From Antedon mediterranea (lineage: Eukaryota > Animalia > Echinodermata): a stretch of 64,000 nucleotides of DNA. The position numbers and the translations under genes are program-made. Position 1 is the stretch's first letter. Every line of letters starts with the position of its first letter. The stretch spans positions 3,635,888 to 3,699,887 of the forward strand of contig NC_092676.1 of assembly GCF_964355755.1 (NCBI RefSeq), read 5' to 3'. Of the stretch, positions 1 to 46,011 are shown in pieces. Under the pieces are notes generated by a model, which saw only the letters and a program-made list of their open reading frames with translations, was not told the origin of the DNA and made no database searches.

Positions 1-331
1 GCAAAGAGGCCACGTACGAAAATGGTAAATTGCGTATCAAAGGCATAGCAACTTCTGACAAGGTGACAATTAAGTACGAAAATATTAAAACATCTACGCG
101 TTAGAGAAGATGAGATGAGATAACTAAGATGACGTCACCTAGTTGTGGATGAGCTAATAATGATGCAAACGTGTACGAAAATGTTAAATTATCACCGAGA
201 TTAAGAAGAGTTGGAATCAACATTTCAGATAATCGCGAAGATGACGTAACCAAGGTGCATGCGAGTAAAAAAACGACGTATACGAAAATGTATCGGTACG
301 GACAAAAGCAGTGAAGTGTGCTAAGATATAG
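1..331 (+). pseudogene. 3' end of an array-1 Ig receptor cytoplasmic tail (YEN type), degenerate
   Basis: Translates to KEATYENGKL...KYENIKTSTR*, then NVYENVKLSPRLRR...DNREDDVT and DVYENVSVRTKAVKCAKI* in shifted frames. Homologous to 5360-5593. The 5' part is outside the window. Confidence 0.7.
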
Positions 332-1289
332 AGGAAGCAAAACTGAACCAAACGTACAGAATATTCATACAAAAACAAACAATGAAAACTGCACTAACGC
401 ATATTATCATATAGACTTGTTTATGAAGTGTTCAATACCTAAATTAGAGGTTTATACCAGGTATGATATATTTAGTATTGATGTTTTTATTAGTGAAAAT
501 GATAACTTTTAACATTTGCAAACTACTGTCCCCAACACGTACAGGGGTGTGACCTAAAAGTATTGTAAGACTAGTATGGGCCATGATACTTCCATGGTAA
601 GAGAAATAGAAAAGTAGGCTAAATATATACGTTGAATTATTATAGCAGAGTATTAAAATATTGTAATTTTGTTTAAGGAAGTAAATCAAAAAATATTATA
701 TTATAAATAATCAACTCTGAGATTAACATTAACCAGGAAAGGGAAGGAAGGAAGTATTAGAAAACAATGCAATATACATGGCTGCAGTCGCGTGCTCAAG
801 TTAGTGTTTACCGACCGAGCAATTGACCGACATAGAGAGATGTAAAGTCGCATTGCAAGCGACTAATAATTAGCAGAATTAAACTGTACAGAAACGAGTA
901 AAGAAAAACAGAATAAAGTTCATCGATAACATACTCTTATTTGGCATGAAATAAGCAACAATAAAATATCGATTATATGCAAGTACACGTGATTGTCCAA
1001 AATGGATTTTCCATGTTTCTATATAAAGCTGCGATTGTATACGCCATTAGATTTCTATATAAATATAAATATAATTTAATTATTAAACTTTAAGCAAGAA
1101 CTTATATATATTGATCGATATTTACACGTTGCAAATTAGTAATTTTGTAAAAATGTATTTAATAAATATTTTGCTTTAAGTCTATAATTTTTTACTGTAT
1201 ATTTATAACTGCAAAGTTAACGGACAAAAACCTCGCATAAATCACTTGAATTGAGAGGTATAGAGAAATTGAACAGTACATTGTTAATT

Positions 1290-1480
1290 TTTTTTTAATA
1301 GTTAATAGACTTTTATTTCGCATCTTTCTTTCTTTGTTTAAATGAAATCTGAAAATTGGACCCCATTGGAAATAAGTTTGCTTTTTTGTCGACTTAATGG
1401 GTTATCCAGGTATTCTTTTAATACATTGTATATTTTAACTTTTTATGTATGAATATCGAATAAAATCAATCAATCAATCA
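1290..1480 (+). repeat. Retroelement 3' tail ending in AATAAA-(TCAA)n
   Basis: 1358-1480 is the near reverse complement of 27079-27205 and ends in a microsatellite tail. The left boundary is approximate. Confidence 0.55.
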
Positions 1481-1886
1481 ATTTGACATTTTTGTATATT
1501 AATAGGCATGTGTTTTGTAACTTTTAAAGGTTACTTTATTATTACTTGTATTAATTTTTAATGTAACCGAGTAAATTACGTAATTTATTGTTTTATGACA
1601 TACAATACAGGAAATAAATTCAGACTTATGTTTTTATTTTACAGAGAATAAATAAATAGTATCAGATATCACAAATGTGTGAAGAAATACATTAAAAATA
1701 TTATTTTATTCTCTCAGCTTGAGTGTACTACTTACAGTACGCTCATGTAAATATATATTTAATTGAATATGTATAAGTAATTGTTTCTGTAATTGATTAT
1801 TATAAGAGAGCAGACAAATTAAACTTAATTTAAAGTAAATTTTTCCAAATGTTATTGTACTTGTTTGTTGATTAAGGAACAAATGA

Positions 1887-2324
1887 ATGGAAAGGGCACC
1901 AGTTGAGATCAACGTTAACGAGAATAAGAAAGAAAGTTGTAAAAAAAAAAATGAATATGACTGTGTAAAATCAGCAGACAATCGAAACGATAAAATGACT
2001 GAAACAGACAGTGAAAATGAGTATGATTATGTGGAAACATCAGGCATAGGCGTCAAAGAAGGCTCTGCAGAATACATTGAGGTTGTTGATGACAACACTG
2101 ATGCTGATTCCATGATTGCACTACTAAAAACAGAAACTAGTAGGCCTACTGTGGCTGAGTACAATGATGCTTCAATACAACAAAACTATATTTCAATAAA
2201 TATTAGAGAAAATGATAAAGAGGCTGAGTTCGAAAACAGTAAATTACATCGTGTTAAAGGTATCTTCGACGTATACGAAAACGCATCTGTACGCACAAAA
2301 CCACTGAAGTCTGCAAGGAAATAG
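1887..2324 (+). pseudogene. Orphan Ig-receptor cytoplasmic-tail fragment without ectodomain or TM
   Basis: NEYDYVETS, EAEFENSKLH and DVYENASVRTKPLKSARK align with the tail of 4160-5593. No Ig or TM sequence lies upstream. Confidence 0.7.
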
Positions 2325-3381
2325 AAGAAGCAAAACAGAACCAAACGTAAGATCAAAAACAACGATGAAAACTTCACCAAACAATACATTACATCAAATA
2401 CCTCTTTAAAAAAATAAATATCTGCCATTTCAGTTTCCCAGGTATGATCTATTAAGGCTTTTGTTAAGTGAACTTTCACTTTTTCCAAAATACTCATAAT
2501 TTGACAAAATAAGCAATAATGACTAAATCATACGTTGAAATGTACAGTAATTAATTGGTTTGATGTTTAAGAAAATAAAATGAAATAAATTAGAGAGATG
2601 AATATTAACCAGAAAATAGAAGAGTAGGAAGTCCTAGAAAATAATTAGCAAGAATTGAAATCGTACAGGAAAAAAAGTCAGCAAACATAAGCATTCTAAC
2701 GTGATCGTCAAAATGGTCTATGATGGTTCTCTCTAAAACCTCGACTATACGTCATTAGATTTATATAAATATAATAATTATAACTAATAAACTTTAAGCA
2801 AGAACTAAATTGTTAAGTTATTTACACGTTACAAGTTTCTAGTTTTGTGAATATACATTTAATAAAATAATTGTACCAGGTATTACGAACGTTGGAAAGA
2901 TAGCTATCTTACACTTTAGTAATTTTTATTAAAAGATAGAGATAAACTTTAACTTCAGCATTTATCAAGTATTCCTGTCGTGTGTGGCAGCAGACGGCAA
3001 CTTACTTAAAAAGAAAAAAAGAAACAGGAATGATCCAACGTTTTAGTTTTAAGTTACTCTATAGGGGGCGGTATGCATTACTAGTTTTACCTATAGAATG
3101 GAATATGTTAAAATAACTGTATACAGGTTACGTAGTTGATGCTAATATCACTTTAGCAGGGGTACGCTACAATACAGTTCACAGTAATCTGAGTGTTTAA
3201 ACAGAGTATATTGTACCAACAACGTGCACATGTGAGCATCTACAAAAAGTATTATAAAGGCTAATTTTAAGTCTAAGTATAATTGAATTTTGTATTATTA
3301 TTTCTGGACATTTTTGATCCATACAATCTGGAATTTGATGGGTAAGGTAATCGATATTGAAGTTTAGCAGACGTGTTTATA

Positions 3382-5593
3382 ATGGCTCATCATCAACATT
3401 GTACATTGCTGATGGTTATATTGTATACTATTTTTTACTGCTGCTGTGCACAAACCTATACTTTTACAAAACATCCACAATCGGTTCTCGTTACGGAAGG
3501 ACAAACAGCAACGTTGTCGTGTGAATGGACAACAGCACCAACACATGACGTTTTCTGGTCTTTTTTTCGCTCGTGTTGGTACGCCTAAATTAATTGAAAG
3601 TTTAACATTAAAATACAATGTAACAAGTAAAGCAACATCTTCAAATCTTTCCATTTTTAATGTTGATTCTGATGACGTAGGAAGCTTAAGATACAGATGT
3701 GATATCTTGGATAGTGATTCATACAGTCTTTCTGAACTTGCTTCTGTAGTGCTAGCAGAAATAACGTGCAATCCAGAGAATGGCAATGGTGAGATAGGAA
3801 CAACGCTGACATGTTCTTATATTTTGTCTCATCCGTTAGATAATGTTGATTTATTATGGTTCAGATATGGAAGTGTAATTGAATCACATCACAAACAAAT
3901 GCATGTTTTAGAATCAAGGGTTTTGACTGCCGAAGACGATGGAGTTGTATTTACTTGTAAAGCCACAATGGGATCTCAAGTGATAGGAACTTGTGAAACT
4001 ACTCCGCTAATATTGAACATAGATGCAGAGATTGAACAATAACCACCAGGTCCACTTCAGGTTGGTGATAGCTTTAATCTCACGTGCTTTGGGAAAGGTA
4101 GTCCTGATCCTGGTAATTATATTTATGAATGGATATGGAACAACATTTCTGTAGATTCTTTGAAAAGTAATTGGCGATTTGCAATAAGCAATGTATTTAC
4201 TGTGAAGAGTGCGACAACCAAAGACAACGGTGAAATAGTTACTTGTACTGTCAGTCGTGTTGGACGTGACAGCAGTACAGAGAGCTATACAATAAACATT
4301 TCGGAGATTCCATTGAGTATATTAACTACACCTTTGCAATATTCTGTTACAGACCTATTACTATCAACCAATGTCTCGGACAATGAACCTCCAAAACTAA
4401 CGATTGTCGTTGGTGTCGTAGCTCTTGCGATTTTTATAACAGCAATTATAATTTACTTTTTACACAGAAGGCGCAAGAGCAATCAGTACGCCAACAAAAC
4501 AAAACCAATGAGCCTACAATTACAGCCAAATTGTGGTCACATGGAACAACAAATTACATTTTTTGACAACAGAATTATACAAACTTCAACAAACCTCGAC
4601 AACATGCGTGAAACAGCTTTGACCCTAGATGGTCGAATGTTAGAGTCTAACACACAAGATACCAGTATGCATGAAAACCCTACCGTGTCAGCACAGGATA
4701 CAATAAAAGAAAAGTATTATATGGGATCGGTAGACATTCACAACAATGGAATCACTACAACATGCAACAAAAATGAATGTGATAGTGTGGATTTAACAAC
4801 AGACAAGCAGAGTACTAAAATGGCAGCTGAAAGAGACAGCCAAAATGACTGTGATTTTGTGGAGTCAGCAACAGACAATCACAACATTGAAACCATCACA
4901 TCAGGTAGCGTAAATGAGTATGATTATGTGGAAACATCATGCAATGGCGCTAGAGTGAAGACTATCAGAAAAAACATTGAACTTGCCGATGACAACAGCA
5001 ATTTTCCCAAGAGAAAGCCACTGAAAACAGAGAATAATAGGCCTACAACGACTAAGTACAATAATGATTCAATGTCACAAGCAGATGTTTCCAGAAATGC
5101 CAGAGCTAATGATGAATTGGCCAAAAACTTGCATCACCTCAAAGATATCACAAGCATGGCAACATCTGACGACCAGAACATGTATGAAAATGTTAAAATG
5201 CCGCGATTGAGGAAAGATAAAGTACTGCTTATAGTTACAGGCAGTAGAGAGGATGACGTCACCCCAGTACACGACGCGAATACAAAACCCGATACAAACG
5301 TGTACGAAAATGCTTCGATGTCAAAAACATGTGTTTCCAGAAATAACAGAACCAACGATAAAGAGGCTGAGTATGAAAACAGTAAACTGCATCTTAAAGA
5401 TATCACAAGCATGACAACATCTGACGACCAGAACATGTACGAAAATGTGAAAAGTGTGTTACCGAGACTGAGAAAAGATGGAGTAACCGTTATGGACAAC
5501 CGCGAGGATGACGTCACCATAGTGCACGCGAATACACATGTGTACGAAAATGCACCAATACGAACAAAAGCAGTGAAGTCTGCTAAGAAATAA
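3382..5593 (+). pseudogene. Single-exon 3-Ig transmembrane receptor with YEN/YDY tail, disrupted
   Basis: ATG at 3382, +1 frameshift in the T7 run 3561-3567, and TAA at 4040-4042 where paralogs have TCA (QSPPG). The ORFs 3446 and 4160 are in the same frame. TM is IVVGVVALAIFITAIIIYFL, followed by HRRRK. Confidence 0.85.
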
Positions 5594-5764
5594 AAGAAGA
5601 AAAACAGAACCAAACGTACAAAATATTCATACAAATACAAACAATAAGGGGTGTGACTTATTGTCAAGTAGTAAGTATTGTAAGACTAGTACGGACCATG
5701 ACAGTTCCATGCTACGATAAATAGAAAAGTAGGCTAAATATATACGTTAACATCTTGAATTATT

Positions 5765-8083
5765 TTGCTGGAGAAAACATCAGGCTCATTGATGATCTCC
5801 TATACTATACTGTTGAAGAAGATGTGAGTAGAGAGTTCATGTTTAAGGTGTTGGAAAAATTTAACTTTGGAAAGTCCTTTTGTAAATGGGTAAAAACAAT
5901 TTATAAAAACACAGAATGTGTCATTGTTAACAATGGATGGGTATCTGAAAATTTTGAAATGAAATGTGGTATACGACAAGGCTGTCCCTTGCCAGCATTA
6001 CTATTTCTATTGGTTGTAGAAACAATGGCAAGTAACCTAAGAAATGATCAACATTATAATGGAATTTTGCTACCTGGTCCTACAAAAGAGGAAGAACGTA
6101 TAGCACAACTTGCAGATGATACAGTATTGTTTGCAAGAAACGAAAAAAGTATAAAAAGAGGTCTATTCATTGTTAATAATTTCTGTGAAGTATCTGGTTT
6201 AAGCTTAAACAAAAACAAAACTAGTGCCATGTGGATTGGTAAAAATAGATTTTAAAAAGATAAACCTTTTAATTTAAACTGGGTCACTGATCCTATAAAA
6301 ATCTTAGGAATATACTTAGGTATGATGCTGAATTATGTAAAGAATTAAACTGGGCTAAAAAATTAACAAACCTTGAAAAAGTATTAAACTCTTGGAAAGC
6401 AAGGAATCTTACAATTTTTGGAAAAGTCACAGTTTTAAAAAGTTTAGCTTTAGCCCCATTAATTTACAACGCATCCATAATTGATGTGCCTGAAAGTTTC
6501 GTTAAAAGGATAACACAATTGTCTTATGAATTTCTTTGGGATGGAAAAAATGAAAAGATAAAAAGAAAAACATTAATTGGTAATATAATTGAGGGTGGCA
6601 TTAATATGCCAGATTTTTCTACTCAAGTTAAAACACTTAAAATCACATGGGTAAAGAGAATTCTTTGTAGAAAACATGTAAAATGGAAAGTACTTCCACT
6701 GTATTATATAAACAAGATTGGAAGTGATTATATGGTGTTTAATATGTCAAACTAGAATATAAGAAAGGGCAGTTTTTTGTTAGCTAAGATGCCCTTATTT
6801 TATTCAAATGTAATAAAAAGTTGTGCAGAATTTAATACAAATATAAACAGTAAGGCAAAATCTTATAATAATGTTATACAAGAAAAACCTATGGGGTAAT
6901 AATGAAATTGTTTGTAAAAACACTACTTTGTTTTATAAAACGTGGAGTAATGTAGGTTTCAATCAGATCAATGATTTAGTAAGAATCAATAGACTAATGA
7001 ACCCACATGAAATGTTATCAAAATTAAATGTCAAAAGAAACTGGCTTAGTGAATATGCTACACTTATGCAAGCTATTCCTAAAGGTTGGCTGGATTTAAT
7101 AAAAAATTATAATGGAGATAGTGTTAAATTAAATTCAGATGATTATAAAATAAATAAGATATTTCAGATGAAAACAAAACAGATATATTCAAGTTTTATA
7201 GAAGGTATGTTTGTTGCTCCTATTACTATTCCCAAATGGGAAAAAGAAATTGATATTGAAATTACAAACTGGTTTGATATTTGGTCAAGAAAAGTAAAAA
7301 ATGAGAAAAACAAAAAATATGCACAACTTAATTACAAATTACTTCTTAGAATTTTACCAACACATTTACAATTATATAAATGGAATATTAAGAACACAAA
7401 AAAATGTGAGTTATGTGATGTAACTGAGGATGAAAAGCACATGTTTTTCAAATGTAAAAGCAATGTATTATTATGGAAAAAAATCAATTTTTAAAAAGTT
7501 AGATAATAGTAACTGTTCTTTTGAAGAACTTGTTTTTGGGTCTGAATGCAACATAAAAAAATAAGTTATACTCAATTGCTCTATATTCTATATATAAAAT
7601 AAAAATATTGTCAGAATTAAATAAGTCAGTATGTAAAAACTCATGGATAATGTTTAAAAATATACTTACACAAGAGTATACCATGAAAGTATTTTATTAA
7701 TTGTTTATTTTGAAGGTTACTGTAAATAAAGTAATTTGTACAAAAATGTAAATAGAGCAAATAAAACAGAAAAAAAGAGGAAAAAAGGAAAAAAACAATA
7801 AAAAGAAGTGTAAAAAAAATAGCATGGTAAATGCTATACTCTACAAGCAACTGGTTATTGAGGTGCTTTTGATTTTCCATATTTATTGATATTGTTTTCA
7901 GTTTATATGTAATGTAAATGTGTAAATGATATCTTGCAGAGTTTTTTTAAGATGAAAGGGGAAACTTTATGTCTATGAATGAAAATAGTATATATTTAAA
8001 AAGATAATATACAAACTTAATAAAATTGTTTATTTATGTTTTGAAATGAAATAAAGGTGAGTGAACCTCACAAAAGAGAAAAA
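5765..8083 (+). mobile_element. 5'-truncated L1/Tx1-type LINE (RT and C-terminal zinc knuckle), decayed
   Basis: GIRQGCPL and IAQLADDT RT motifs, CELCDVTEDEKHMFFKC knuckle, AATAAA and A-rich end. 16-bp TSD AACATCTTGAATTATT at 5749-5764 and 8084-8099. Confidence 0.92.
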
Positions 8084-9806
8084 AACATCTTGAATTATTA
8101 TATCAGAAACAAATATTATAAAGTATATATAGCAACATAGGCCTAAGTGTCCTAATTTGACATCATTTGTTTAAATAGATAAAAAAAAAACACAAATATG
8201 AAAGTACGCGTAATCGTCAAAGTGGTCTGTGTTGGTTCTCTATAAAACATCGACTGTAGATTTTATATAAATATAATAATTATAGATAATAAACTTTAAG
8301 GAACAACTTAATTATTGACAAACCAGAAAAGAGAAGGTACGAAGTATTATAAAATAGTTAGCAAGAATTGAATAGTACAGGAAATAAAGTAAGCAAACAT
8401 AGGTTACCTAACACGTGATCGTCAAAATGGTGTCTATGACGGTTCTCTCTAAAACCTCGACTAATACGTCATTAGAAAATAATAAGCAAGAATTGAAATC
8501 GTTCAGGAAAAAAGTCAAGCCTTCTAACGTGACCGTCAAAATGGTCTATGACGGTTCTCTCTAAAACCTCGACTATACGTCATTATATTTGTATAGGCCT
8601 ATGCATTTAATAAATAAATTGTATCAGATATTACAAACGTTATAAAGAAAATCATCTTGTTCTTTATTATTTTTTTTACTAAAAGATAGCAAACAACTTA
8701 ACTTAATAAAGTTAATGAAGGGAAAACATTGAAAATGAAACGTTTTGATACTTTGTTACTATGTTATTTAAGGAAACATTAAATTATAACCGAGCAATTC
8801 TTTATATAATGTATCTATTATTTAACAAAATGGCGCCTTCAACTTCGTGAAACGAAACAAGTTAGGCGTACATTTTATTTTACGGTAATGTAAATATAGT
8901 AGGCCTACCTTATTCTACAATGAATAGCAAAAATAAATTTCATGGAATTTACAATTATTTGTTTAGAGTATGTAGGCCTAATTGATTGTTATTAGAGGAG
9001 AGGAAACAAATTTAATAAAGTGGATTTTTTCAAATATTTTTATACAAATTAAAGTATTTATTTATTAAGGTAACTGAGAGTAATAGTAATGACAAAAAAT
9101 GATAAAGATTTTGGGAACTAAGAAATTATAGATGGTGAAGGTTACAGCTTGGTTCCTTCAATCAAACACAATATGGGTTTTCTTATTACGAAAAAAAAAC
9201 AAAGAAAGTTCTAAATACTTTCTACACTGTGTAGGCCTACATTTAGAAAATTGCCAAAATTACTGTCTTCAAATGGACTTTGTTTAAAAGATATTTAGAA
9301 GAGTAAAGGATCAAATAATAAATAAATTATTGTTCTTATTAAATGATCAATAATCCAACATATATCTACAGTAATAGGCATTAGTATATAAGAAGTTTTA
9401 TAACTCGTTGACAGCATTGTCTAAATTCAAATAGACTAAAAATAAAGCCTTAAGAAAGAACGAATTTATAAAATATATAATTATAAAAACATGATTAACA
9501 ACCTAATGAACGGAAGAAAAAACAAACAACAAACTAACTAAACATAGCCTATATGGATGAAAAATAAATAAAAAGACATCCGTGGATTTTGTACTACAGA
9601 AAAGTATATTTCAAAAATACATTAAAATAGGAATATACCTCCTCAGCGTTTTAGTATAAAAAAATAACTCAAGGGGGCGGTATACAGTTATACAACTGGA
9701 GTTTTACTTATTTTACAATAATGGAATAAGATTTGTTTACAAAACCTTAGAGCGGATGCGCAGTTATTTCTGTGTATAGCATGTGACCAGGTTTGATGTA
9801 TCAATA

Positions 9807-11767
9807 GGTTCTAGGACACCTACCCCCTAGACAGTTACCCCCCGGATATTTACCACCCGGACAACTACCCCCTTAGGACAACTACCCCCCGGACAACTAC
9901 CCCCCGGACAACTACCCCCTTAGGACAACTACCCCCTTAGGATAACAACCCCCCGGACAACTACCCCCCGGACAACTACCCCCTTAGGACAACTACCCCC
10001 TTAGGATAACTACCCCCCGGTCAACTACCCCCCGGTCAACTACCCCCCCCCCCCCCCAATCCAAAAGTAGACAAACGGTTTCTGTAAAAATGAAATCATA
10101 TGTTTTTAACGGGTGTTTCGAAACTAGAGACCCGAGACCAGAGACCTGACACGAGACCCAATACGAAAAGGGAGACCTATATTTGGGTCTCCCTTTTCGT
10201 ATATTAGGGTCTCCCTTTTCGTATAGTGTGGTCTCTCTTTTCGTATAGTGGGGTCTCCCTTTTCGTATAATTTGGGTCTCCCTTTTCGTATATTTAGGTC
10301 TCCCTTTTCGTATATTAGGGTCTCTCTTTTCGTATAGTAGGGTCTCCCTTTTCGTACGTGGGTCTCTCTTTTCGTATATTTAGGTCTCCCTTTTCGTATT
10401 GGGTCTCGGGTCTCTGGTCTCTGGTCTCGGGTCTCTAGTTTCGAAACACCCGTTTTTAACCGATTATTCTGTTTAACAGCACGCTAGACCCTAGATGTGC
10501 TAGATTTAAAGTACCGTATTTATTGACAAAACGGCCTGGGCTGTTTATTGTTTAGGTGGTTTTTAGGTGGACATTTATTGGAAGAAAGTTGTTTATTCAA
10601 TGGGAGGGGGTATAATCTAATGGAAATAGACGCCGATTATTAATTCCATATGATGTTTCATGGGAGTGACATGATCACCGTTTATTTGAGGGGAATTTAT
10701 TTAAAGATCGCCGTTTATTCGGTGAGTGAACATTGAGGTCAAATATCAAAAGTGATATTATTCTTCAAGTGTACAAAAATACATATATGACAAATTTGAG
10801 ACAAAAATTAATTCTTTTAAGACCAGTGGTTATCGAAGCATTGTCCTGACGCAAACATTATTATTATTATTAGCGAACCCAGTCTTTACAGTAAATACAG
10901 GGAGTACTATATAATACGTTCGACTATCCTATGATCATGTGTGACAATCTTCAGTTTAAACCAGGCTATATTTATGTTCAATCTTTTACTTTTGTTTACA
11001 ATAATGAATAGTAATTCGTCAAAGTAACGAATTAAAATATAGTTATTAATTCCTATTATACACTGTTGCAGAGTCAGGTTGTTGAATGGTCTGGGTGGTA
11101 GTTGTCCGTCCGGGGGGTAGTTGTTCTAAAGGGATAGTTTTCTGGGTGGTAGTTGTCCAGGGGTTAGTTGTCCTACGGAGGTAGTTGTCCTAAAATATTA
11201 TTTGCCCTCGGAGTATTGTCCAGGTCCAGGAGGTAGTTGTCCTACCCGGTATTGTGTCAGAGGTAGTTGTCCGCGGGGTAATTACCCGGGTGGGGGGGGG
11301 GGTTGTCAGGGCGTAATTGTTCCTAGGGGGTAATTGTCCGGGGGTAATTGTTCCTAGGGGGTAATTGTCCGGGGGGTAGTTGTCCAGGGGTTAGTTGTCC
11401 TACGGAGGTAGTTGTCCTAAAAGATTATTTTCCCTCGGAGTATTGTCCAGGAAGTAGTTGTCCTACGGGGAGTATTGTGTCAGAGGTAGTTGTCCGGGGG
11501 GTAATTGTCCGGGGGGTAATTGTCCGGGGGGTAAATGTCCGGGGGGTAATTGTTCCTAGGGGGTAAATGTCCGGGGGGTAGTTGTCCGGGGGGTAGTTGT
11601 CCTAAGGGGGTAGTTGTCCTAAGGGGGTAGTTGTCCGGGGGGTATTTGTCCGGGGGGTAGTTGTCCTAAAGGGGTAGTTGTCCTAAGGGGGTAGTGGTCC
11701 AGGTGGTGGTTGTCCGGGGGGTAGTTTTCCGGGTGGTAAATGTCCAGGGGGTGAATATCCGGATACG
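9807..11767. mobile_element. Non-autonomous foldback/MULE-like DNA element with minisatellite arms
   Basis: GGACAACTACCCCC arrays at 9807-10050 are inverted relative to GGGGGTAGTTGTCC arrays at 11090-11767. 9-bp TSD GTATCAATA at 9798-9806 and 11768-11776. Confidence 0.85.
10111..10451. mobile_element. MITE nested in the foldback element
   Basis: TIR GGGTGTTTCGAAACTAGAGACCCGAGACCAGAGACC, internal GGGTCTCCCTTTTCGTATA repeats, 9-bp TSD GTTTTTAAC at 10102-10110 and 10452-10460. Confidence 0.88.
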
Positions 11768-12032
11768 GTATCAATACAGTGACTACCGGTACATAGTGTA
11801 TAGGAATCAGATCGAGTGAGTGTTTAAACTGAGTACGATTTCATAACAACGCGAGTATCGACTAACAATAAGGTTTACATTATAAACATTATTGTTTAAT
11901 CATCAGCATTTACCTACGTCTATTTGTGTACGTTTTTGTTTCATCAAAAATCTCTAGTTTGGAAGTTGATTTAAACTGAACCAAGGTAATATTGGAAGCT
12001 GAACTAGAAACTACCAAGTCGCAGTGTTTATA

Positions 12033-13745
12033 ATGGCTCATCATCATTGCTTGTTGTGCCTGATTATATTGTATAGTATATTTTACGACTGTTTTGCACA
12101 AATATATCGATTCACAAAACATCCACAACCGGTTCTTGTTGCTGAAGGAAACACAGCAAGGCTATCATGTGCATGGAGACCAGAATTGTATGAACTGCAT
12201 AACTTTGAATGGGCATTTTTCCCTCAGAATGGTGGTGAGCCTCAACCAATTAGAATGTCAAATTCAAAATACAATCTAACAAATGACGCAACATCTTCGA
12301 ATCTTTCCATGTCCAATGTTGATTCTAATTACGCGGGAAACTACAGGTGTGATATCAGAGGAATTAATGAATACAGTGATTCTAAAGATGTTGCTGTAGT
12401 GATAGGAGAAATAACGTGCAATCCAGAATATGATAATGGTGGAATAGGAACAAAGATGACATGTTCTTATAATTCTTCTTATCCTTCAAATTATATTTAT
12501 TTACGATGGCATAAAGACGGAAATATAGTACTATCAGACACACAAGACAAACACGTTATAGAATCAATAGTTTTGATTGCTGAAGACGATGGAGCTGTGT
12601 TTACTTGTAAAGCTATACTCGAAAACCAAGTGATAGGAACTTGTGAAACTACTCCGCTAGTATTGAACATAGATGCAGAAATTTTACAATCACCACCAGG
12701 TACACTTCAGGTTGGAGAAAGCTTAATTCTTACCTGCTCAGGGAAAGGTAATCCTGATTATTATAATTATACATGGATGTGGAATGACAACCCTGTAGGA
12801 TCGTCCCCAGATAAAAATAGATATGCAATAGAGAGTGTGCTTACTGTGAAGGATGTATCAAGCAGTGACAATGACAAAATAGTTACTTGTACCATTAGTC
12901 GTGATGGTCGTGACAGCAGTACAGCGAGCTATACAATAAATGTTGCAGAAAATACGCAAAGTACAACTGCACGTTCACGCACAACACAAGGTAGGTCTAC
13001 TGTTACAGACCTACTATCAGCAACAACATTATCATCAACCAAACTATCAGCAAACAATGTCACGTATGACGAGCCACAAACATTGATTATTGTCATTGGC
13101 GTAGTTGCAACCGTTATTGTGATTTTGATAACAGCAGTTGTAATTTACATTTTACATAAAAGGCGTCAGAAACAGGATGGCAAAAAAACAAAACCTGAAA
13201 ATGTACCATTGAAAGAACCAATGTATGGTAACACTGATCAAAATATTAACAGTTCTGAAAAATCACGCGTACAAAATGGCCCTCGGAGTGAAAAGTTGAC
13301 AACAGATTTTACAGTATATGATGAGCCTACAATTTCAAGTTCAAATACTCAGTTGGAGACTATGTACGCAGAACCTGATAGGTTAGTAACTGGTCACGAT
13401 GCTAGGTATGACACGCCACGGAACGCTATAAGTCTTGACAATATCGATACAGCGAATACTGATGAAGCGAGTGATACTAAGCAAAGAAAAACAAAAAGCA
13501 GAGAATGTATTGATGCAATGTATGCAAAACCGAACAAGTCTCGCAGTACAGAAAGTATTGATGATCTGTATGCTAAGCCCAACAAACAGACTGCAAGAAC
13601 GCCAGAGATTACCCGTGAAGATCCTACTAAGAAAAACGTAGAAGGCCTAACGTACGCAGATATAGAGTTTAAAAGCGGTACTTTTCCAAACCCAGAACCA
13701 CAGGACTACGGACTTGATTACGCAACCGTACAGATTAAGAAGTAA
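12033..13745 (+). CDS. Intronless IgSF receptor (V-type + 2 Ig, S/T stalk, TM) with YxxP motifs and two C-terminal ITIMs
   Basis: Hydrophobic signal, C..W..YAGNYRC V domain, two more Cys pairs, TM IIVIGVVATVIVILITAVVIYIL. Tail has YDEP, YAEP, YDTP, YAKP x2, LTYADI and LDYATV. Confidence 0.92.
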   Translation: MAHHHCLLCLIILYSIFYDCFAQIYRFTKHPQPVLVAEGNTARLSCAWRPELYELHNFEWAFFPQNGGEPQPIRMSNSKYNLTNDATSSNLSMSNVDSNYAGNYRCDIRGINEYSDSKDVAVVIGEITCNPEYDNGGIGTKMTCSYNSSYPSNYIYLRWHKDGNIVLSDTQDKHVIESIVLIAEDDGAVFTCKAILENQVIGTCETTPLVLNIDAEILQSPPGTLQVGESLILTCSGKGNPDYYNYTWMWNDNPVGSSPDKNRYAIESVLTVKDVSSSDNDKIVTCTISRDGRDSSTASYTINVAENTQSTTARSRTTQGRSTVTDLLSATTLSSTKLSANNVTYDEPQTLIIVIGVVATVIVILITAVVIYILHKRRQKQDGKKTKPENVPLKEPMYGNTDQNINSSEKSRVQNGPRSEKLTTDFTVYDEPTISSSNTQLETMYAEPDRLVTGHDARYDTPRNAISLDNIDTANTDEASDTKQRKTKSRECIDAMYAKPNKSRSTESIDDLYAKPNKQTARTPEITREDPTKKNVEGLTYADIEFKSGTFPNPEPQDYGLDYATVQIKK

Positions 13746-13782
13746 ATATCTCCCGTAACTGTTACGGTGACCAATACCTTAC

Positions 13783-15739
13783 ATTTACAATGGTATAAAT
13801 CAGACGAACAAGTACTATCATACACACAAAACAAACACGTTATAGAATCAATAGTTTTGACTGCTGAAGACGATGGAGCTGTGTTTACTTGTAAAGCTAT
13901 ACTCGAAAACCAAGTTATAGGAACGTGTGAAACTACTCCGCTAATACTGACTATAGATGCAGAGATTGATCAATCACCACCAGGTGTACTTCAGGTTGGG
14001 GATAGCTTTAATCTTACCTGCTCAGGGAAAGGTAATCCTGATTATTATAATTATACATGGGTGTGGAAAAACAAACCAGTAGAATCGTCCCCAGGAAAAA
14101 ATAAATTTGCAAAAGATAATGTGCTTACTATGACGAGTGTATTAAGCAATGCCAATGGCAAAACAGTTACTTGTACTATTAGTCGTGATGGTCGTAACAG
14201 CAGTACAGCGAGGTATACAATACACGTCATAAGCCCCTTTCTCACAGAGTTGTGTGCCAGGAATATTGCGGGAATATACCATTACCATGCCGGTATGGTT
14301 TTCTGTGAGAACGGGTCGTCTTGGCATCATGCCGGCACCATGCCGGCATCGACATGACCTGCTTTAGACCTAGTAATATTCTAGGGATATTCCCCGCAAT
14401 GCCAGACGGGCATTCTGTGAGAACGTATTGCCGTTATATTCCGGGGTTCCCCGTCGAGGCTTTGACACCTTGCGCAGTCAAGTGTATCACTTTGGCGCCT
14501 ATTCAATTCAATTAACAATAATAATGTCGAACTGGAGGGATAATGAGATAAGAGAGCTGCTTAAAATAAGGGGACAAGAAGAAATTTGTAGCATAATCTA
14601 TATAGGCCGCTAGGCTAGGCCAGCCATTAGCTCGTTGTTTGTTGGTGCCTGACCTTTCGTCGCCTTGTAAATTGTAGGCCTACAGCCTTCTAAGGTGTTT
14701 TACAGATTGCCGATGACGGCAAATTAATTGCTATACCTGTATAATATATGCACAATATACTGTACATAGCATGTATTGCATAAATATGCTATAAAGGAAG
14801 ATAATAATCTGTAACTTAACATTCGCCGCCATATCATCGCTAGACAAAAATAATAACAATAAAGGACGCCCTCAATAATTATTTTGTCAGAGAGTTTTTA
14901 TTGGCCGAATATGCCCGACTCCTTTCTCACAGAAAGCCGGTATATACCGGTTATATTTCCGGCACGATAGTCCGATGAGAATGGGTATATGCCGGTAACG
15001 ATACCGGCACGACGCCAGCACTGTACCGGTATATTGCAGGCACATCTGTGAGAAAGGGGCTTTAGAGAATACGCCTACTGTTACAGACCCACTATCAGCA
15101 AACAATGTCACAGACGAGCCTCAAACATTGATTATTGTCATTGGCGTAGTTGCAACAGTTATTGTGATTTTGATAACAGCAATTGTAATTTACATTTTAC
15201 ATAAAAGACGTAAGAAACAGGATGACAAAAAGACAAAACCTGAAAGTGTACCATTGAAAGAACCAATGCATGGTAACACTGATCAAAATATTAACAGTTC
15301 TGAAAAATCACGCGTACAAAATGGCACTCGGAGTGAAAAGTTGACAACAGATTTTACAGTATATGATGAGCCTACGATTTCAAGTTCAAATACTCAGTTG
15401 GAGACTATGTACGCAGAACCTGATAGGTTAGTAACTGGTTACGATGCTAGGTATGACACGCCACGGAACGCTATAAGTCTTGACAACATCGATACAGCGA
15501 ATACTGATGAAGAGAGTGATGCTAAGCCAAGAAAAACAAAAAGCAGAGAAAGTATTGATGCAATGTATGCGAAACCGAACAAGTCGCGCAGTACAGAAAG
15601 TATTGATGATCTGTACGCTACGCCTAACAAACCGACTAGCGTAGAAGGCCTAACGTACGCAGATATAGAGTTTAAAAGCGGTACGTTTCCAAACCCCGAA
15701 CCACAGGACTACAGATTAAGAAGTAAATATCTCCCGTAA
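13783..15739 (+). pseudogene. 5'-truncated tandem duplicate of the 12033 receptor, interrupted by a transposon
   Basis: Starts mid-Ig2 directly after the 3' flank of the parent. The frame is restored when 14232-15064 is removed (GTC ATA GAG AAT). A 22-nt deletion removes the last ITIM. Confidence 0.88.
14232..15061. mobile_element. Non-autonomous PIF/Harbinger-like element
   Basis: TIR AGCCCCTTTCTCACAGA, flanks ATA/TTA. Internal MSNWRDNEIRELLKIRGQEEI (14524-14586) resembles the start of the Harbinger Myb/SANT-like protein. Confidence 0.75.
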
Positions 15740-16279
15740 CTGTTACGGTGACCAATACCTTACATTTATCATTACGAATCAACTTTTGACATGTGACGTA
15801 ACCGCATCGTTCAATATTGCTTGTACTGTACAAAGCTATTTTAATGCAATGTGTATTATAGGCCTAAAATATAACAGTCAAACGAATTTATATCGTAATG
15901 GTATACGTCATAGGCATCTCATAAACGATGAAGGAATTTGTTGATATCCATTAAAACAAAAACAAATTTCATAATATTTACTACCATGGGTTGCTGTAAT
16001 TTTATTTTATTAGAAACATTATAGGCCTAATTCTGAAGATTTTGTGAAATATCAGATTTTAGCCACATGGCAAGTGAAGCGTTTTGGCAAATCATGGACA
16101 CGTGTCCCGCAGAAAAATAAAATACAACTAATATTGGAAAACTCTCTCCATAATTTCAAGTTTAACTTTATCTACGGAGGCCTAGCTCAACACGGATGTT
16201 CTTTGCTGCAGCCGTCCTATAGAAAGGACAGCAGTTGTGTACGCAGTAGCAGTAAATAAACTTACAATAATAAAAAACA

Positions 16280-16289
16280 GGAAAGTCCC
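16280..16289 (-). promoter_or_regulatory. Canonical NF-kB site GGGACTTTCC upstream of the 16764 receptor
   Basis: The + strand reads GGAAAGTCCC, about 475 nt upstream of the ATG, within a block conserved among paralog upstream regions. Confidence 0.5.
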
Positions 16290-16763
16290 AAATTTTAAAT
16301 ACAAGTTACACTCTAGGGGGCAGTATACAATACTACCGGTATACCTGACAGTCGGTAATCTGTGACAATAACTTGAAACCGGAAATCCAGTTTTTTCTGT
16401 ATATACCATCGAGCCCGACGTTCCAATACAGTGATTTAGAATACAGGAATCAGATCGAGTGAGTGTTTAAACTAGTACCATTTCTATCAAAGTTGATTAT
16501 TTCTGTATTATATCGTAGCATTTTACAATACACAGTGATAAGAAGCAGTAAAATCATAATCGAAAGTGTTCTTAAACTGGATAAAACTTCTATCACAATG
16601 TATACAGTTTTACATTGTATTAAGTATCTTTAAATCATCGGAATCCAGTATTTCTCAACGTTTTTATTCCGTACCAACAATCTCTATTTTGATAAGGAAA
16701 TTGATTTACACCAATCTATAGCAATATTTGGAACTCAACCATCGGAAGGAACTACAAAGTGTA

Positions 16764-18524
16764 ATGGCTCATCCCCAACATTGGACATTGCTGTTTTACA
16801 AGAAGTGTCTGATTATATCTTATAGTATATTTTACTGCTGTTATGCACGATCTTATACTTTTACAAAACATCCACAATCAGTTCTCGTTGCAGAAGGACA
16901 AACAGCAACGTTGTCATGTGCATGGTCACCAGCATTGAATGGAAACCATGATTTTGCATGGTCTTATTATCGACCTGGTATTAACATTCAACGAATTGAT
17001 GGTTTAAATGCAAGATACAATATAATAAATGAAGCAACCTTTTCAAATCTTTCCATTTTCAATGTTGGCTCTTTTGAAGTAGGAAGATACAGGTGTGATA
17101 TCTTTGACGATGACGCTTCATACATTCTTTCTGAGCAGGCTCTTGTAGTGCTAGGAGAAATATCGTGCAATCCAGAATACGACAATGGTGAAACAGGAAC
17201 AACGATGGCATGTTCTTATATTTCCTCTTATAATGTTAATGCTATTGATTTATTATTTTATAAGAACGGAAAAATAATTACATCAGAAGTACAAGATAAT
17301 GTTTTAGAATCAAGGGCTTTGACTAGCGAAGACGATGGAGCTGTATTTACTTGTAAAGCCACCATAAAACCAAACAATCAAGTGATAGGAACGTGTGAAA
17401 CTACTCCGCTAGTACTGAATATCGATGCAGAGATTGAACAATCACCACCAGGTCCACTTCAAGTTGGTGATAGCTTTAACCTTACCTGCTCAGGGAAAGG
17501 TAATCCTGATTATTATGAATATGAATGGAAGTGGAATGACAACCCAGTAGATTCATTAAGAGGTAACAGTCGAAGTGCAATAGGCAATGTGTTTACTGTG
17601 ACAGGCGTTTCAAGCAGTGCCAAAGACAAAATAGTTACTTGTACTATTAGTCGTAGTGGTCGTAACAGCAGTACAGCGAGCTATACAATAAACGTTTCAG
17701 AAAACAGTTTAAGTACAACACCACAAGGCAGGCAACAATCCATTACAGATCAACTATCAACAACCAATGTCCCAGATGAAGATCCACAAACAGTGATTAT
17801 TGTCATTGGCGTAGTGGCAATAGCTATTGTGATTTTGATAACAGCAATTATAATTCACATTTTATATAAAAGGCGCAAAAGACAGTACGACAAAAAGACA
17901 AAACCCGAAAGTGTACCATTGAAAGAACCAATGTACGACAACATTGAACAAGACATTAACAGTTCTGAAAAAACTTACAATTCTGAAAAAACGCACGTAG
18001 AAAATGGCTCTCTACGTGAAACATTAAAAACAGATTTATCAATATATGATGCGCCTACGATTTCAAATTCAAATACTCAGTTGGAGACTATGTACGCCGA
18101 ACCTGATATGTTAGTAATTGGTCACAATGCTAGGTATGACACGCCACGGAACGCAGTAAGTCTGGACAATATCGATTCAGTGAATGAAGCAAGTGATGCT
18201 AACCCAAGAAAAACAAAAAGCAGAGAAAGTATTGATGAAATGTATGCGAAACCGAACAAGTCCCGCAGTAAAGAGAGTATTGATGATCTGTACTCTAAGC
18301 CTAACAAACGGAATACGAACACGCCGATCGAGGCCCACAGTAAAGAGAGTATTGATGATCTGTATGCTAAGCCTAACAAATCGACCACAAACACACCAGA
18401 CCCTACTAAGAAAAACGTAGAAGGCCTAACGTACGCAGATATAGAGTTTAAAAGTGGTACGTTTCCAACCCCCGAACCACAGGATTACGGACTTGATTAC
18501 GCAACTGTACAAACCATAAAATAA
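16764..18524 (+). CDS. Intronless IgSF receptor (V-type + 2 Ig, TM) with YxxP repeats and two C-terminal ITIMs
   Basis: Paralog of 12033. EVGRYRC V-domain motif, TM VIIVIGVVAIAIVILITAIIIHIL, tail ends LTYADIEFKSGTFPTPEPQDYGLDYATVQTIK. Confidence 0.92.
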   Translation: MAHPQHWTLLFYKKCLIISYSIFYCCYARSYTFTKHPQSVLVAEGQTATLSCAWSPALNGNHDFAWSYYRPGINIQRIDGLNARYNIINEATFSNLSIFNVGSFEVGRYRCDIFDDDASYILSEQALVVLGEISCNPEYDNGETGTTMACSYISSYNVNAIDLLFYKNGKIITSEVQDNVLESRALTSEDDGAVFTCKATIKPNNQVIGTCETTPLVLNIDAEIEQSPPGPLQVGDSFNLTCSGKGNPDYYEYEWKWNDNPVDSLRGNSRSAIGNVFTVTGVSSSAKDKIVTCTISRSGRNSSTASYTINVSENSLSTTPQGRQQSITDQLSTTNVPDEDPQTVIIVIGVVAIAIVILITAIIIHILYKRRKRQYDKKTKPESVPLKEPMYDNIEQDINSSEKTYNSEKTHVENGSLRETLKTDLSIYDAPTISNSNTQLETMYAEPDMLVIGHNARYDTPRNAVSLDNIDSVNEASDANPRKTKSRESIDEMYAKPNKSRSKESIDDLYSKPNKRNTNTPIEAHSKESIDDLYAKPNKSTTNTPDPTKKNVEGLTYADIEFKSGTFPTPEPQDYGLDYATVQTIK

Positions 18525-22134: not shown

Positions 22135-24553
22135 TTAAGATTGAAAACCCTTATTGTCCATAGCAGGACCGGATACAAACGATGCCATTGATTTTTGCGT
22201 GTGCTCATGGACAGGGAAAAACCAGGATCGCAGAACGCCGACATATCGACTGCGCATCGTAAAATTCTCGCCATTGGCGGCGTCTTGTTCTTTCATTTTT
22301 AAAGCAGCTCGTCGGATTACGACAATACCCACTATAATGAGTACAATAAGAACTAGTGCGATAATACCCATTGTTACCCCAATAATGGTACTATTCGACA
22401 CCTCGGATTTGTTCGAGTCTAAGGCTTCGTTTTCGATATCGTCAAGGTTATTCAAAGGCGTTGTAGCCGGTGTTAATGTCGTGGTTGGTAGTGGTTGAAC
22501 GTTTAGTATCAATATGTCTGACGGCAGAGTTCCAGCAAAGTAGTTCACCCTACATTGGACACTTGCACCGGCATCAGCTAATGTTACGTCACGGATGTCC
22601 ATAGTGGCGGAGGAACCAAAATTCCGGTATGTAATGCGTTCGTCATTCGGGTTGATAACGGCACCATCGATGTACCAGGTGTAATCTGGATTTGAAATGT
22701 GAAAGGCTTGGCAAACGAACACAGCGGTGGAGCCAACATCAACGTCGTTTACTCCGCTTATCTCGACTGCTGGATCACCGGTGATGAGCTTGAACGGTCC
22801 GACTGAACAGGTACGAGGAAGGCTCCATAGCTGATGGCTACCTTCGCAGATAAAGACCGCGTCAGCATCTTCCTCTGTGACTTTCCATGTGTGTGTATTG
22901 GTGGTTTCGCTAGGCTCGGTCAAATCTTCACCTCGAAGCCATTTCAGGATAGTTGCTGGAGAACCACCGTTTGACTCGCACGAAAATGTGATTTCTTCAC
23001 CGATGTTGACATGAAGGTTGTCTATGTCGGTCTTGCATTCTGGGTAGTCTCCTGCTGGCGCGGCTAACACCTGCAGGGCTGCTTTTTGAGATTGCAGACC
23101 AGTTTCGCCGCCAAGTACGATGCATTGGTACACTCCGGCATCCTGAGCTTGGACATTACTGATGCGGAGACTGTAGCCATAGTAACCATCTATATTTGTT
23201 GGCACCACAGAATATCTGATTAAAATAAGAAACGGTATAATTAAATTAAAGACATGAAAATTAATAATAAATAAACAATTATACGTAAAATAAACAATAA
23301 TAAAACGAAATCATGGCCTATTGTGGTGTATCTACGCTGTATTGAAACAAACAAAAACATTGCCCGGGCCGTGTATACTGTAATCATGGAGGAAAAAAAA
23401 TAATTATAATGTTATTATTTTTCCTCCATTGTATAATATATATACACGATAATGACACTGATATTTCATATTCTATAATGTTGACAAATGTCAATCCAAT
23501 CACGCAGAAATGTATAATTAAATTAAACAATTAGAGAGGTTATTTTTATCTTGAGCAGCAACGATATTTATAATAACTCTCTTTGAATTGTGTTAACGGT
23601 GTTGACAATTGTAATGAATGAACTTGATGTCAATTGAAACTACGAACCATATGGTATTGATTGTCACCATGGCAATATTAATTAAATACAGTAATAACGC
23701 TAAAACTCTACCATCAACGAATAATCACCCTCATGGTTTAAATAAATATTAATATGTATTATGAATATATTATGTTGCCAGTCATATTATATTTGGTATA
23801 AATGAATCTTTAATTACTCACAGTACAGTATATATATACACATATGTAGGTTCATAATACAATTTATACCATAAGATAAGATAATATAGTCTAGTAGTCG
23901 AAATATATACTGATATTGTACCAGGTTGTATTCTTAAGTGCTAAAGTACAGTAAGTTTCCATTAAGTTGGTGCTAAATCTACTAAAGTTTGGGACTTGTA
24001 TCCACTCAAGGACGTACGCGCAACACAATTTGGCCAATCACATGCGACGGAGCATTCGAATTGTCCCTTGTGATTGGTCAAATTAAAATATGGCGCTGGA
24101 CGTAGATCAGCCTGACGTAGATTTTTGCGTTATTAGTTGGTACCAAAATGTAAAGATATTATAATGATTTTGAGACAAGCCTGGTATAGGCCCTTCCTCG
24201 TATAAATAGTACTAGTAGCCTACTGGTCGGGATCTGTTAGGCCGATACTATAATTAATGGTCTTAAAAACTGTAAAATAATGATAAATACAGTTATATAA
24301 AGTAAAATAGATACCTTTTGTATTGAGTGGAATCGCCATCTTCACCCATAACATGGGAAAGTATACTGTGCTCCTGGGTAATGAGAATCGAGTCTTTAAC
24401 CCACAAATGGCTGCCATGATCCGAATTCAAAACGCAACTCAATGTCACATCTTGGCCCACATACGCGGTGGTGTCAGTTGGTTGCGAGATAAAATCTTGC
24501 GCAAAAGACACAGACACAGTCAGGAGAAACAATCCAAGGTTCCGAAAGCCCAT
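22135..24553 (-). CDS. Two-exon 3-Ig type-I membrane protein (KIRREL/CADM/nectin-like), 439 aa; exons 24553-24315 and 23215-22135
   Basis: Signal MGFRNLGLFLLTVSVSFA. A GT-AG phase-2 intron joins ..QYKR|YSVVP.. and the total is 1320 nt. DAGVYQC motif, TM IIGVTMGIIALVLIVLIIVGIVVI, short tail with a single Tyr. Confidence 0.88.
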
Positions 24554-34162: not shown

Positions 34163-35409
34163 ATGTCCAGTAAAAGTCACCACCGTGATTCTTCACCTCA
34201 TCATAGGCATAAACACCACAAAAAACACAAGAAGCGGAGCTCGCCATCCCGCCACCGGCGTTCACGCTCTCAAAGCCCAGAAGAGAGTCATGACCACCAT
34301 CGGCCTAGAAAACACAAGGCATGGCATTTGTTTTCTTGACTTAATTTCAAACATCTCTAAATCTTTTTGATTATGTACTGTATATTTATGTAGGCCTAGA
34401 CCCTCGTTATGTTTTAAAATTATTTGTTTAATACTAGAGACTACTAGCTAGGCCCTAGCTAGCTAGCCTAGCCTAAATATTAAAATGTACAGTACAGTAG
34501 GTAAAATTATTAAATTTATTTAGTATTATTAGTTTAGGCCTAGCCTAGTCCAGGTAGTACAAACTTTAAATTCATTTATTGCATATTACTAATGCTTGAC
34601 ACACCTTTGTATTCCAGATGCGGCACCATGATGAAGAGAGGCATGGAAGACATCGAGAGTATAGTACGTCTCCAAGGAGAAGGGAAAGAGAACACCATGA
34701 CAACAGAAATACACAAACGGAAAATAGAAGAGGTCACAGACATGAAGAAAGGAGTCATCAACCTCCTGTGAGAATAAAACAAGAAAGAGAAGAAAATGAT
34801 GACAGGAGGCGAAGAGATCATAAAAACAAACCAACAAATCCATTCCAAACGTCCGAGAATAATGAGTATGGCCAACCAAACGATGCTAATCAAATGGAAG
34901 AACCCGCTCAACCAAAGCAAGGCCCAGATTTTGGGCTGTCTGGGAAACTTGCGGAAGAAACGAACACATTTAGGGGAATTGTTATCAAATACAATGAGCC
35001 CCCTGAAGCTCGAAAACCTAAGAAAAAATGGCGTTTGTACGTGTTCAAAGGTGCGGAACAAATGCCCGTCCTTCAAGTGCATAGACAAAGTGCGTATTTA
35101 CTGGGTAGGGATAGAATGGTCGCGGACATTCCTATAGATCATCCGTCGTGCTCGAAGCAACATGCAGCATTGCAATTTAGACTCGTAAACTACCAACGAG
35201 ACGACGGCACTACGGGGAGAAGAGTCAAACCGTTTGTCATCGATCTAAACTCCTCAAATGGCACAGTCGTAAATAACGTTAAGGTCGAACCGCAACGATA
35301 TGTAGAACTTTTCGAAAAAGACGTTGTCAAGTTTGGATATAGTTCTAGGGAATATGTTTTGCTTCATGAAAAGACGTCTGTTGATGAGTCGGACGAAGAG
35401 GACGTCTAA
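34163..35409 (+). CDS. SNIP1: Smad nuclear-interacting protein 1 (FHA domain); exons 34163-34318 (probable) and 34618-35409
   Basis: FGLSGKLAEETNTFRGIVIKYNEPPEARKP..WRLYVFK..YLLGRDR..DHPSCSKQHA..YSSREYVLLHE, with an RS/H-rich N-terminus. Confidence 0.95.
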
Positions 35410-45372: not shown

Positions 45373-46011
45373 TTAATTAATTATTAATATTTCTATTAAT
45401 AATAAAATTAATAATTGTGTTAGCTAAAAGTGTACATGTGTTTTCTAAAAAATAAACCTCTTTCAAAGAATTACAGTATCACTTTAAATAACAATAAATT
45501 GTGTACAAGTTATATATACAAATCCACATAATCCGTTTCTCTGATTGACTGAAAGTCGTTACTGCTTTAACAATAGAAAAGAATTGAAATCAAAATCTGG
45601 CAATTACATGACATTGACAGGTAATCATCTTAAGTCTGTATTTCCCTTTGATCTTTACAGCCTCATACCATACTTAAATTGCCATTAGGAAACAAGGAAT
45701 AATAATAGTGACGTAGTTACACTGAGATAATGCTCACTTGACATTCTTATCAGTGTATTTTGGTGGGAAAAGAAGGTCGTACCTTCCGGCCAGGACGTCT
45801 GAACAACATGTTCACATTGTCTTTTGTTCACCATTTTATCGCTGCGAACCTTGTCATGAACTTGTTTGTTGTCGCTTTTCACTGAAGACAATTAAATCAA
45901 ATTTCTACAGGAATGGTTCACTAGTATTTGTATGCCAGTTTGATTGTTGATGGGTTTGCTAAACTAAAAATTGCATCAAGTGAAAATTGATTTAGACACA
46001 AGTTGATTTTG

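Follow-up and report, generated by a model that had tools for sequence, protein, structure and literature searches.

Does a crinoid genome hold a paired-receptor system, in which related immunoglobulin (Ig) receptors carry one ectodomain on tails of opposite signalling effect? The question is raised by a tandem gene cluster of Antedon mediterranea at the start of a 64-kb stretch of contig NC_092676.1 (positions 3,635,888 to 3,699,887; hereafter the window, numbered from its first nucleotide), which is animal DNA of 33% GC. Six related elements, named R1, R2, A, B, C and D, all lie on the + strand and span 18.5 kb. An initial annotation, made from the letters of the DNA, had proposed that the genes starting at 3382 (A), 12033 (B) and 16764 (D) are inhibitory and activating counterparts; ATG codons are indeed found at these three positions, and the Ig frameworks are common to all three genes. 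The answer that we slightly favour is that the cluster represents a mosaic family with two kinds of tail and a distinct signalling output for each.

Intact receptors B and D

Genes B (12033..13745, + strand) and D (16764..18524, + strand) are intact three-Ig type I receptors of 570 and 586 amino acids, each encoded by a single open reading frame (ORF) that is unbroken from signal peptide to stop. The signal peptide is followed by three Ig domains, a Ser/Thr stalk, one transmembrane segment (TM; 13080-13154 in B, 17790-17864 in D) and a tail of about 200 residues, and this combination of signal peptide, Ig folds, single TM and cytoplasmic tail is that of a type I receptor of the Ig superfamily. 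Pfam I-set/V-set and Ig_2/Ig_3 models matched the ectodomains above cut-off, while neither a fibronectin type III (Fn3) nor a sushi domain had a Pfam match in the family. A structure model of the D ectodomain built on a 40-row alignment, which superseded an earlier model with a predicted local distance difference test (pLDDT) score of 55.8, predicts three consecutive Ig domains at a pLDDT of 86.8. The fold matches of the model are generic three-Ig proteins at 13-20% identity, and fold, PDB-sequence and Atlas searches with the three-Ig receptor returned nothing beyond generic Ig neighbours.

Both tails end in two candidate inhibitory motifs of the immunoreceptor tyrosine-based kind (ITIMs). The sequences LTYADI and LDYATV, which the initial annotation had ascribed to two of the genes, were found at 13647 and 13713 in B and at 18426 and 18492 in D, spaced 22 residues apart in each. 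When motif enrichment was tested against 2000 composition shuffles, the ITIM pair exceeded chance only by a modest margin (B, p=0.013; D, p=0.064). YxxP motifs, which had been overlooked, number five in B, five in C and six in D, with fewer than one expected (p<0.0005). Motifs of this type bind Crk/Nck-type Src homology 2 (SH2) domains.

A search with D yielded 182 matches, and the 150 that were listed have identities of 22-39%. Among these 150, N[VA]EGLxYA[DE][LI] occurs in 10, and [LIV]xYA[DE][LI] occurs within the last 90 amino acids of 18, mostly with a second tyrosine motif after it. Species names were looked up for 20 of the 150, and the named carriers of the ITIM module (Saccoglossus, Ptychodera, Asterias, Patiria, Acanthaster, Diadema and Anneissia) comprise hemichordates, sea stars, an urchin and a crinoid. 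A profile made from these 18 relatives ranked D (E 4e-5), B (6e-5) and C (0.015) at the top of the 1951 six-frame segments of the window, among which it did not pick the YEN-type tails described below. Given that the module is conserved in ambulacrarian relatives, the ITIMs of B and D are better supported than the shuffle test indicates, and their C-terminal pair appears to be of a kind also present in other echinoderms and hemichordates. Other crinoid Ig-TM proteins (P0198, P0245 and P0177) have DDLYAKP-like repeats and no C-terminal ITIM module, and tail modules appear to be mixed among these crinoid Ig families.

A second class of tail

Gene A (3382..5593, + strand) is a pseudogene in which a signal peptide, three Ig domains, a TM (4397-4462) and a 376-amino-acid tail can be recognized. 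The tail carries YDYV (4919) and five YEN motifs (YENV at 5183 and 5438, YENA at 5303 and 5543, YENS at 5372), which fall in an internal repeat of about 85 amino acids. Seven YxN motifs are present in A where 1.24 are expected (p<0.0005). As the initial annotation had stated, A has no ITIM match; it also has no YxxP, and a pattern scan of its tail for activation motifs of the immunoreceptor tyrosine-based kind (ITAMs) gave no match. We considered whether the SMSQADV stretch of A is a decayed LTYADI and rejected this, as the distal alignment is non-significant and the stretch belongs to A's own repeat.

The two remaining YEN-type elements, correctly recognized as remnants from the outset, are pieces of tails that share their 3′ flanks with A. 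R1 (1..331, + strand) is the 3′ end of a broken YEN-type tail, with stops at 102, 111 and 150 and a frameshift near 272; its 5′ part falls outside the window. R2 (1887..2324, + strand) consists of a YDYV block and one YENA, and no ectodomain or TM homology was detected upstream of it: blastn of 332-1890 against A, B and D was empty, and tblastn found tail only. YxN motifs are enriched in R1 (4 versus 0.32 expected) and not in R2 (1 versus 0.67). Both remnants have YEN-type tails, as had been claimed, but R1 holds one match to the ITIM pattern, IKYENI.

The two tail classes had been called unrelated; their distal parts do not align, but the proximal 100 or so residues are homologous. The proximal tail of A (4463..4792, + strand) is homologous to those of B and D at 33-34% amino acid identity, with synonymous sites near saturation and without the YxxP tyrosines of B and D. 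Its alignment score was reached by 0 of 1000 shuffles for B and for D and, after removal of the first 20 residues, by 2 and 0 of 1000; local scores at the DNA level are weak (reached by 46 and 7 of 300 shuffles). For the distal tails, 319 and 193 of 1000 shuffles reached the observed score.

Ectodomain and tail differ in divergence

The ectodomains are less alike than first thought. Ig2-Ig3 had been described as near-identical; the actual identities are 61% (A-B), 66% (A-D) and 71% (B-D), the likeness lying in short blocks, and they fall to 52-63% in Ig1 and 57-65% over the whole ectodomain. Within the window, A has no closer ectodomain partner, though such a partner may exist elsewhere. Ectodomains A, B, C and D nevertheless form one clade (100/100) in a 24-row tree, and the window family is a separate long-branch clade whose ectodomain identity to ambulacrarian Ig-TM relatives is 18-26%.

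The proportion of synonymous differences (pS) separates the two halves of the genes. In the ectodomain, pS is 0.29 for A-B, 0.27 for A-D and 0.29 for B-D. In the proximal tail it is 0.64 (0.50-0.79) for A-B and 0.72 (0.58-0.88) for A-D, near the shuffled level of 0.75-0.89, and 0.26 (0.15-0.38) for B-D. As pS between B and D is alike in the two regions, there is no regional rate effect in this pair. The best-fit switch point lies at 17775..17792 (+ strand), at codon 338 of D just before the TM, and its equivalent in A lies near 4379-4396. Beyond it, B and D share bases against A (maximum chi-square 85.4; reached in 0 of 1000 permutations, whose maximum was 18.2), and third-position patterns uniting A with D, A with B and B with D change from 34/33/29 before the switch to 4/7/54 after it (Fisher p=2e-11). 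Because selection at the protein level does not explain a synonymous jump, it is likely that the ectodomain of A had another history than its tail, in the manner of paired receptors. Between YEN tails pS is 0.44-0.45, which exceeds that between the A ectodomain and the ITIM genes, with overlapping intervals.

In the B-D tail the proportion of non-synonymous differences (pN) is 0.11 versus a pS of 0.30, and in Ig1 pN approximately equals pS (0.28/0.25, 0.21/0.25 and 0.30/0.29), as expected for fast-changing recognition domains. Formal incongruence between ectodomain and tail trees was looked for in the 24-row tree and was not found.

Proposed mechanism and its weak points

The mosaic reading would describe a tandem family of single-ORF three-Ig genes that combine a single ectodomain lineage with two classes of tail, likely the result of an old ectodomain exchange. 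The YEN tail would be an older lineage, formerly coding, and the ectodomain of A would long ago have been exchanged with, or homogenised to, that of ITIM-type genes by unequal crossing-over or conversion. Ligand binding would lead to phosphorylation of the tails by a Src-type kinase, after which the ITIM pair of B and D would recruit SHP-type phosphatases and their YxxP motifs Crk/Nck-type adaptors, while YEN tails would dock Grb2-type adaptors. The family would turn over by birth and death, with pseudogenes arising from both tail classes. On this view B and D would be receptors that recruit phosphatases and also offer adaptor sites, and the YEN class would be, or would once have been, a scaffold receptor of the Grb2 type. 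ITIMs bind SHP-1/2 and SHIP (PMC9546547), and pYxNx binds Grb2, which activates in DNAM-1 and recruits SHIP-1 to inhibit in TIGIT (PMC7226588). Given these two outcomes, the sign of the YEN output is not fixed by the motif, and in a hemichordate relative (P0183) YENV and an ITIM pair occur in one tail.

Several observations weigh against the mosaic reading. The ectodomain tree places A outside B, C and D (88/78, unstarred), as the tails do, so the case for mosaicism comes from divergence, not from topology, and from three genes. No recent conversion tract was found (ectodomain pS about 0.28), and an ectodomain exchange, if any, is old at most. In the Xenopus paired CEACAMs, the V domain is 80-93% identical with almost no synonymous change (PMC5112662), versus 57-65% and a pS of about 0.28 for the crinoid ectodomains. 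A second Ig cluster of the window also has ectodomains (50-67% alike at the protein level) better conserved than tails (16-36%) in 9 of 10 pairs, which makes tail turnover a general feature here. The TM of A has no charged residue. No intact YEN-type gene was found among the 150 matches listed of 182 (best identities 22-39%), nor did word-based searches yield a hit with B at near lengths (0 among 7689 candidates) or with the Ig3-tail piece of A at shorter lengths (0 among 676). The relatives behind the conserved ITIM module were found with the D tail in the query and chosen by pattern, which favours the conservation result. Former coding of the YEN tails is likely, R1 and the last repeat unit of A sharing 67% amino acid identity with a pN of 0.16 and a pS of 0.45, and R2 against A is borderline (pN 0.31 versus pS 0.44); shuffled controls, however, also yield pN<pS after alignment, and a low ratio is safe only for well-aligned pairs.

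Alignable tails with congruent trees, which the initial annotation had named as speaking against its proposal, were found in part: the proximal tails align, and A lies outside B, C and D in both. Two tail classes on one ectodomain clade (100/100) are real, and the divergence switch supports separate histories of ectodomain and tail. The activating role stays a proposal: there is no ITAM and no charged TM residue, and a Grb2 motif can act with either sign. The weakest step, and one less likely than not, is that the YEN class activates and works against the ITIM class on a ligand common to both; a true activating/inhibitory pair is somewhat less likely still. Both classes lie in one cluster and an ITIM-bearing member is present at the sequence level, as in paired receptors, but highly similar ligand-binding domains and an ITAM or charged TM in the second member are lacking. 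For these reasons we do not file the crinoid genes as paired receptors; their architecture is paired-receptor-like, and they may work like them.

Comparison with known receptor systems

Vertebrate paired receptors with intrinsic tails (CEACAM1/CEACAM3 and Xenopus ceacam; CD300A/CD300C) resemble the crinoid family in their clustered Ig genes, in related ectodomains on differing tails with an ITIM-bearing member, in an ectodomain younger than the tail and in the presence of pseudogenes in the cluster. Activating CD300C, a receptor that is often lost, uses a charged TM residue (PMC12447643). The crinoid family, unlike these pairs, has no ITAM, charged TM or recent conversion, is single-ORF and has only pseudogenes in its second class; sequence kinship with them is of the generic Ig kind. 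DNAM-1 and TIGIT also set a Grb2-binding YxN-type motif in an Ig receptor against an ITIM receptor (PMC7226588), but with one immunoglobulin tail tyrosine (ITT)-like motif and no tandem paralogs sharing an ectodomain, whereas A has five YEN repeats.

Among invertebrates, Hydractinia Alr and the Botryllus fester co-receptors (FcoR) are earlier examples of clustered Ig receptors that carry ITIM and other tails. The Alr genes encode clustered Ig-TM proteins whose tails are more divergent than their ectodomains, some with ITIMs, and include 12 pseudogenes (PMC9546547); they differ by their ITAMs, by a spacer that is Fn3-like and by having an exon for each domain, where the crinoid family has no ITAM, no Fn3 and one ORF. 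FcoR are deuterostome multigene Ig receptors of 520-610 amino acids with alternative tyrosine-motif tails (PMC12065747), but they carry a sushi domain between V and C2 and hemITAMs and switch tails by splicing, whereas the crinoid switch is genomic and sushi is absent. Ambulacrarian Ig-TM proteins (for example XP_033121828, XP_022110264, XP_070568247, XP_077864653 and XP_071965601) have the Ig-TM-tail layout, conserved cysteines and YAKP and/or LxYA[DE]L, and are set apart by the low ectodomain identity and separate clade noted above. Echinoderm KirrelL has an intronless coding sequence, as do B and D, and is thus a precedent for their gene structure (PMC8903837).

The excerpts of a review of the invertebrate Ig superfamily name ITIMs only for vertebrate LILRBs (PMC11999971). 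Within the literature searched, from which subscription papers largely fell outside, we found no family of Ig receptors in echinoderms whose members carry either ITIM tails or alternative ones.

Relatives and further copies

In the protein collections searched, B, D and any relative above 39% identity were absent while the neighbouring SNIP1 was present, and the B/D family seems to have been missed by annotation. Exact look-up of eight ORF versions from the window in these collections gave no hit (0/8), and four weak loci from a metagenome scan (29% identity) were set aside. Contigs from sequencing runs carry new letters and join YEN-tail segments in combinations that differ from the window (267 to 5540, 5383 to 173 and 2176 to 5360), which point to further YEN-type copies outside it. 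Summed contig depth in run X4 is about 8,000-10,000 for the ectodomain, about 1,400-4,200 for the remnant tails and about 150 for single-allele pieces; summed depth is no copy number, but it suggests that ectodomain loci number in the tens and that there are several YEN loci. Run X5, presumed to be RNA, also spans intergenic DNA and barely covers the tail of A, and so carries no information on expression or its absence.

Alternative explanations of the two tails

The alternative that survives best, though we think it unlikely, is an Ig family evolving by birth and death, whose modular tails turn over fast and make up no opposing pair. In that case the YEN tail would be one of many tyrosine-scaffold tails, would have arisen as repeats expanded and were scrambled following duplication, and could have a co-stimulatory, a neutral or an inhibitory effect. 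This account is consistent with the congruent topology of ectodomains and tails, the homology of the proximal tails and the many tail types of the second cluster (YVNN, YEEI/YAVL and YIENENEIYVDGN). It also accommodates the A. mediterranea proteins P0198 and P0245, which have YAKP without the C-terminal ITIM module and of which P0245 also has YENV, the combined tail of P0183, and the inhibition by TIGIT through Grb2-SHIP1 (PMC7226588). Fast protein evolution, however, leaves synonymous divergence unraised, the tails of B and D are no more diverged than their ectodomains, and the divergence switch is sharp.

We regard as improbable a non-immune role in which these receptors (KirrelL-like or nectin-like) serve adhesion or cell fusion and their tails adjust cytoskeletal signalling during development, in nerves or in regeneration. 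YxxP repeats do fit actin adaptors, and fold and feature neighbours include NCAM, Necl-4 and fasciclin-3-like clusters. Echinoderm kirrelL, moreover, is an intronless Ig gene required for cell fusion (PMC8903837). Yet CD22, SIRP and CEACAM-like matches are equally close, and the many copies, frequent pseudogenes, Ig1 pN close to pS and lack of a relative above 39% identity among the matches listed are unlike a conserved developmental gene.

Damage in the cluster

Gene A is broken by a frameshift at the T-run 3561-3567 and by a TAA at 4040-4042, where B, C and D read TCA. Contigs from runs X3 and X4 span 3502-3633 with 0 differences and 0 gaps, at a depth in X4 of 338 versus about 150 for pieces in which two alleles are resolved, so the frameshift is real and likely present on both alleles. 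Alternative contigs of A show an extra 4-nt insertion at 4293 and a net loss of 46 nt at 4592-4642. Of 31 listed substitutions, seven were excluded because they were seen next to paralog cover of higher depth or close to the 3′ end; the other 24 comprise 20 non-synonymous and 4 synonymous changes, a pattern as in neutral DNA. The idea that assembly errors account for the breaks, and that the living animal has an intact A, is largely refuted by these findings and very improbable, since the one point in its favour, a C (sense codon) at position 4041 in every contig over it in 4 of 4 runs, is weakened by contigs dropping rare variants and by the many paralogs that share the stretch.

Copy C (13788..15739, + strand) is a broken ITIM-type gene. 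It has no Ig1 and has lost part of Ig2, its 5′ end is joined to the 3′ flank of B at a short microhomology, and a 22-nt deletion has removed its second ITIM. It is also interrupted by an 832-bp insertion (14231-15062), whose terminal inverted repeats measure 17 bp; a short peptide encoded inside it (MSNWRDNEIRELLKI...) may resemble the Myb-like ORF of Harbinger elements. All YEN-type copies in the window are damaged, as the initial annotation had said (A, R1 and R2, 3/3). Its further suggestion that damage is typical of the YEN or activating class did not hold: the ITIM-type C is broken as well, and a bias toward the YEN class was rejected (3/3 versus 1/3, Fisher p=0.2).

Other elements of the window

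Just downstream of A lies a broken non-long-terminal-repeat retroelement (5725-7491, + strand) with a reverse transcriptase fragment (PF00078, E 2e-15), and inverted arrays of short tandem repeats occupy 9809-11762 between A and B. A related three-Ig TM gene on the - strand (22138-24727) appears to have an intron within Ig1, with ORFs 24296-24727 and 22138-23310 on either side, and would thus be a relative with an intron next to the single-ORF genes. A SNIP1-like FHA gene (34600-35406, + strand) is mostly one ORF; ORF 34618-35406 matches a SNIP1-like protein at 100% over 263 amino acids in Antedon mediterranea and at 73% in Anneissia japonica, in agreement with an Antedon source for the window. 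The second cluster of single-ORF Ig-TM genes (45991-64000, + strand) forms its own clade (100/100), with tails bearing YEEI/YAVL, YVNNP repeats or YIENENEIYVDGN repeats. In it, the gene at 56725 shifts frame in the tail near 58330-58370, 51881-53354 is broken, and fragments lie at 48625-49540.

Implications

It is doubtful that crinoids independently evolved a true paired-receptor system on the basis of intronless Ig genes, with neither ITAMs nor adaptor chains. Such a system would comprise tens of loci with two kinds of tail, one an ancient ITIM tail of ambulacrarians and the other a lineage-specific tail with multiple YEN motifs that recruits Grb2; the two would exchange ectodomains by recombination and so yield inhibitory and activating receptors for the same ligands, a picture that we likewise hold to be speculative. 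If intact YEN-type genes exist and oppose the ITIM type, the logic of paired receptors would extend to the basal branch of the echinoderms, where another module would do the activating. The single-ORF genes would be easy to clone and test. Even without pairing, the conserved ambulacrarian ITIM tail module provides a concrete handle on inhibitory signalling outside chordates.

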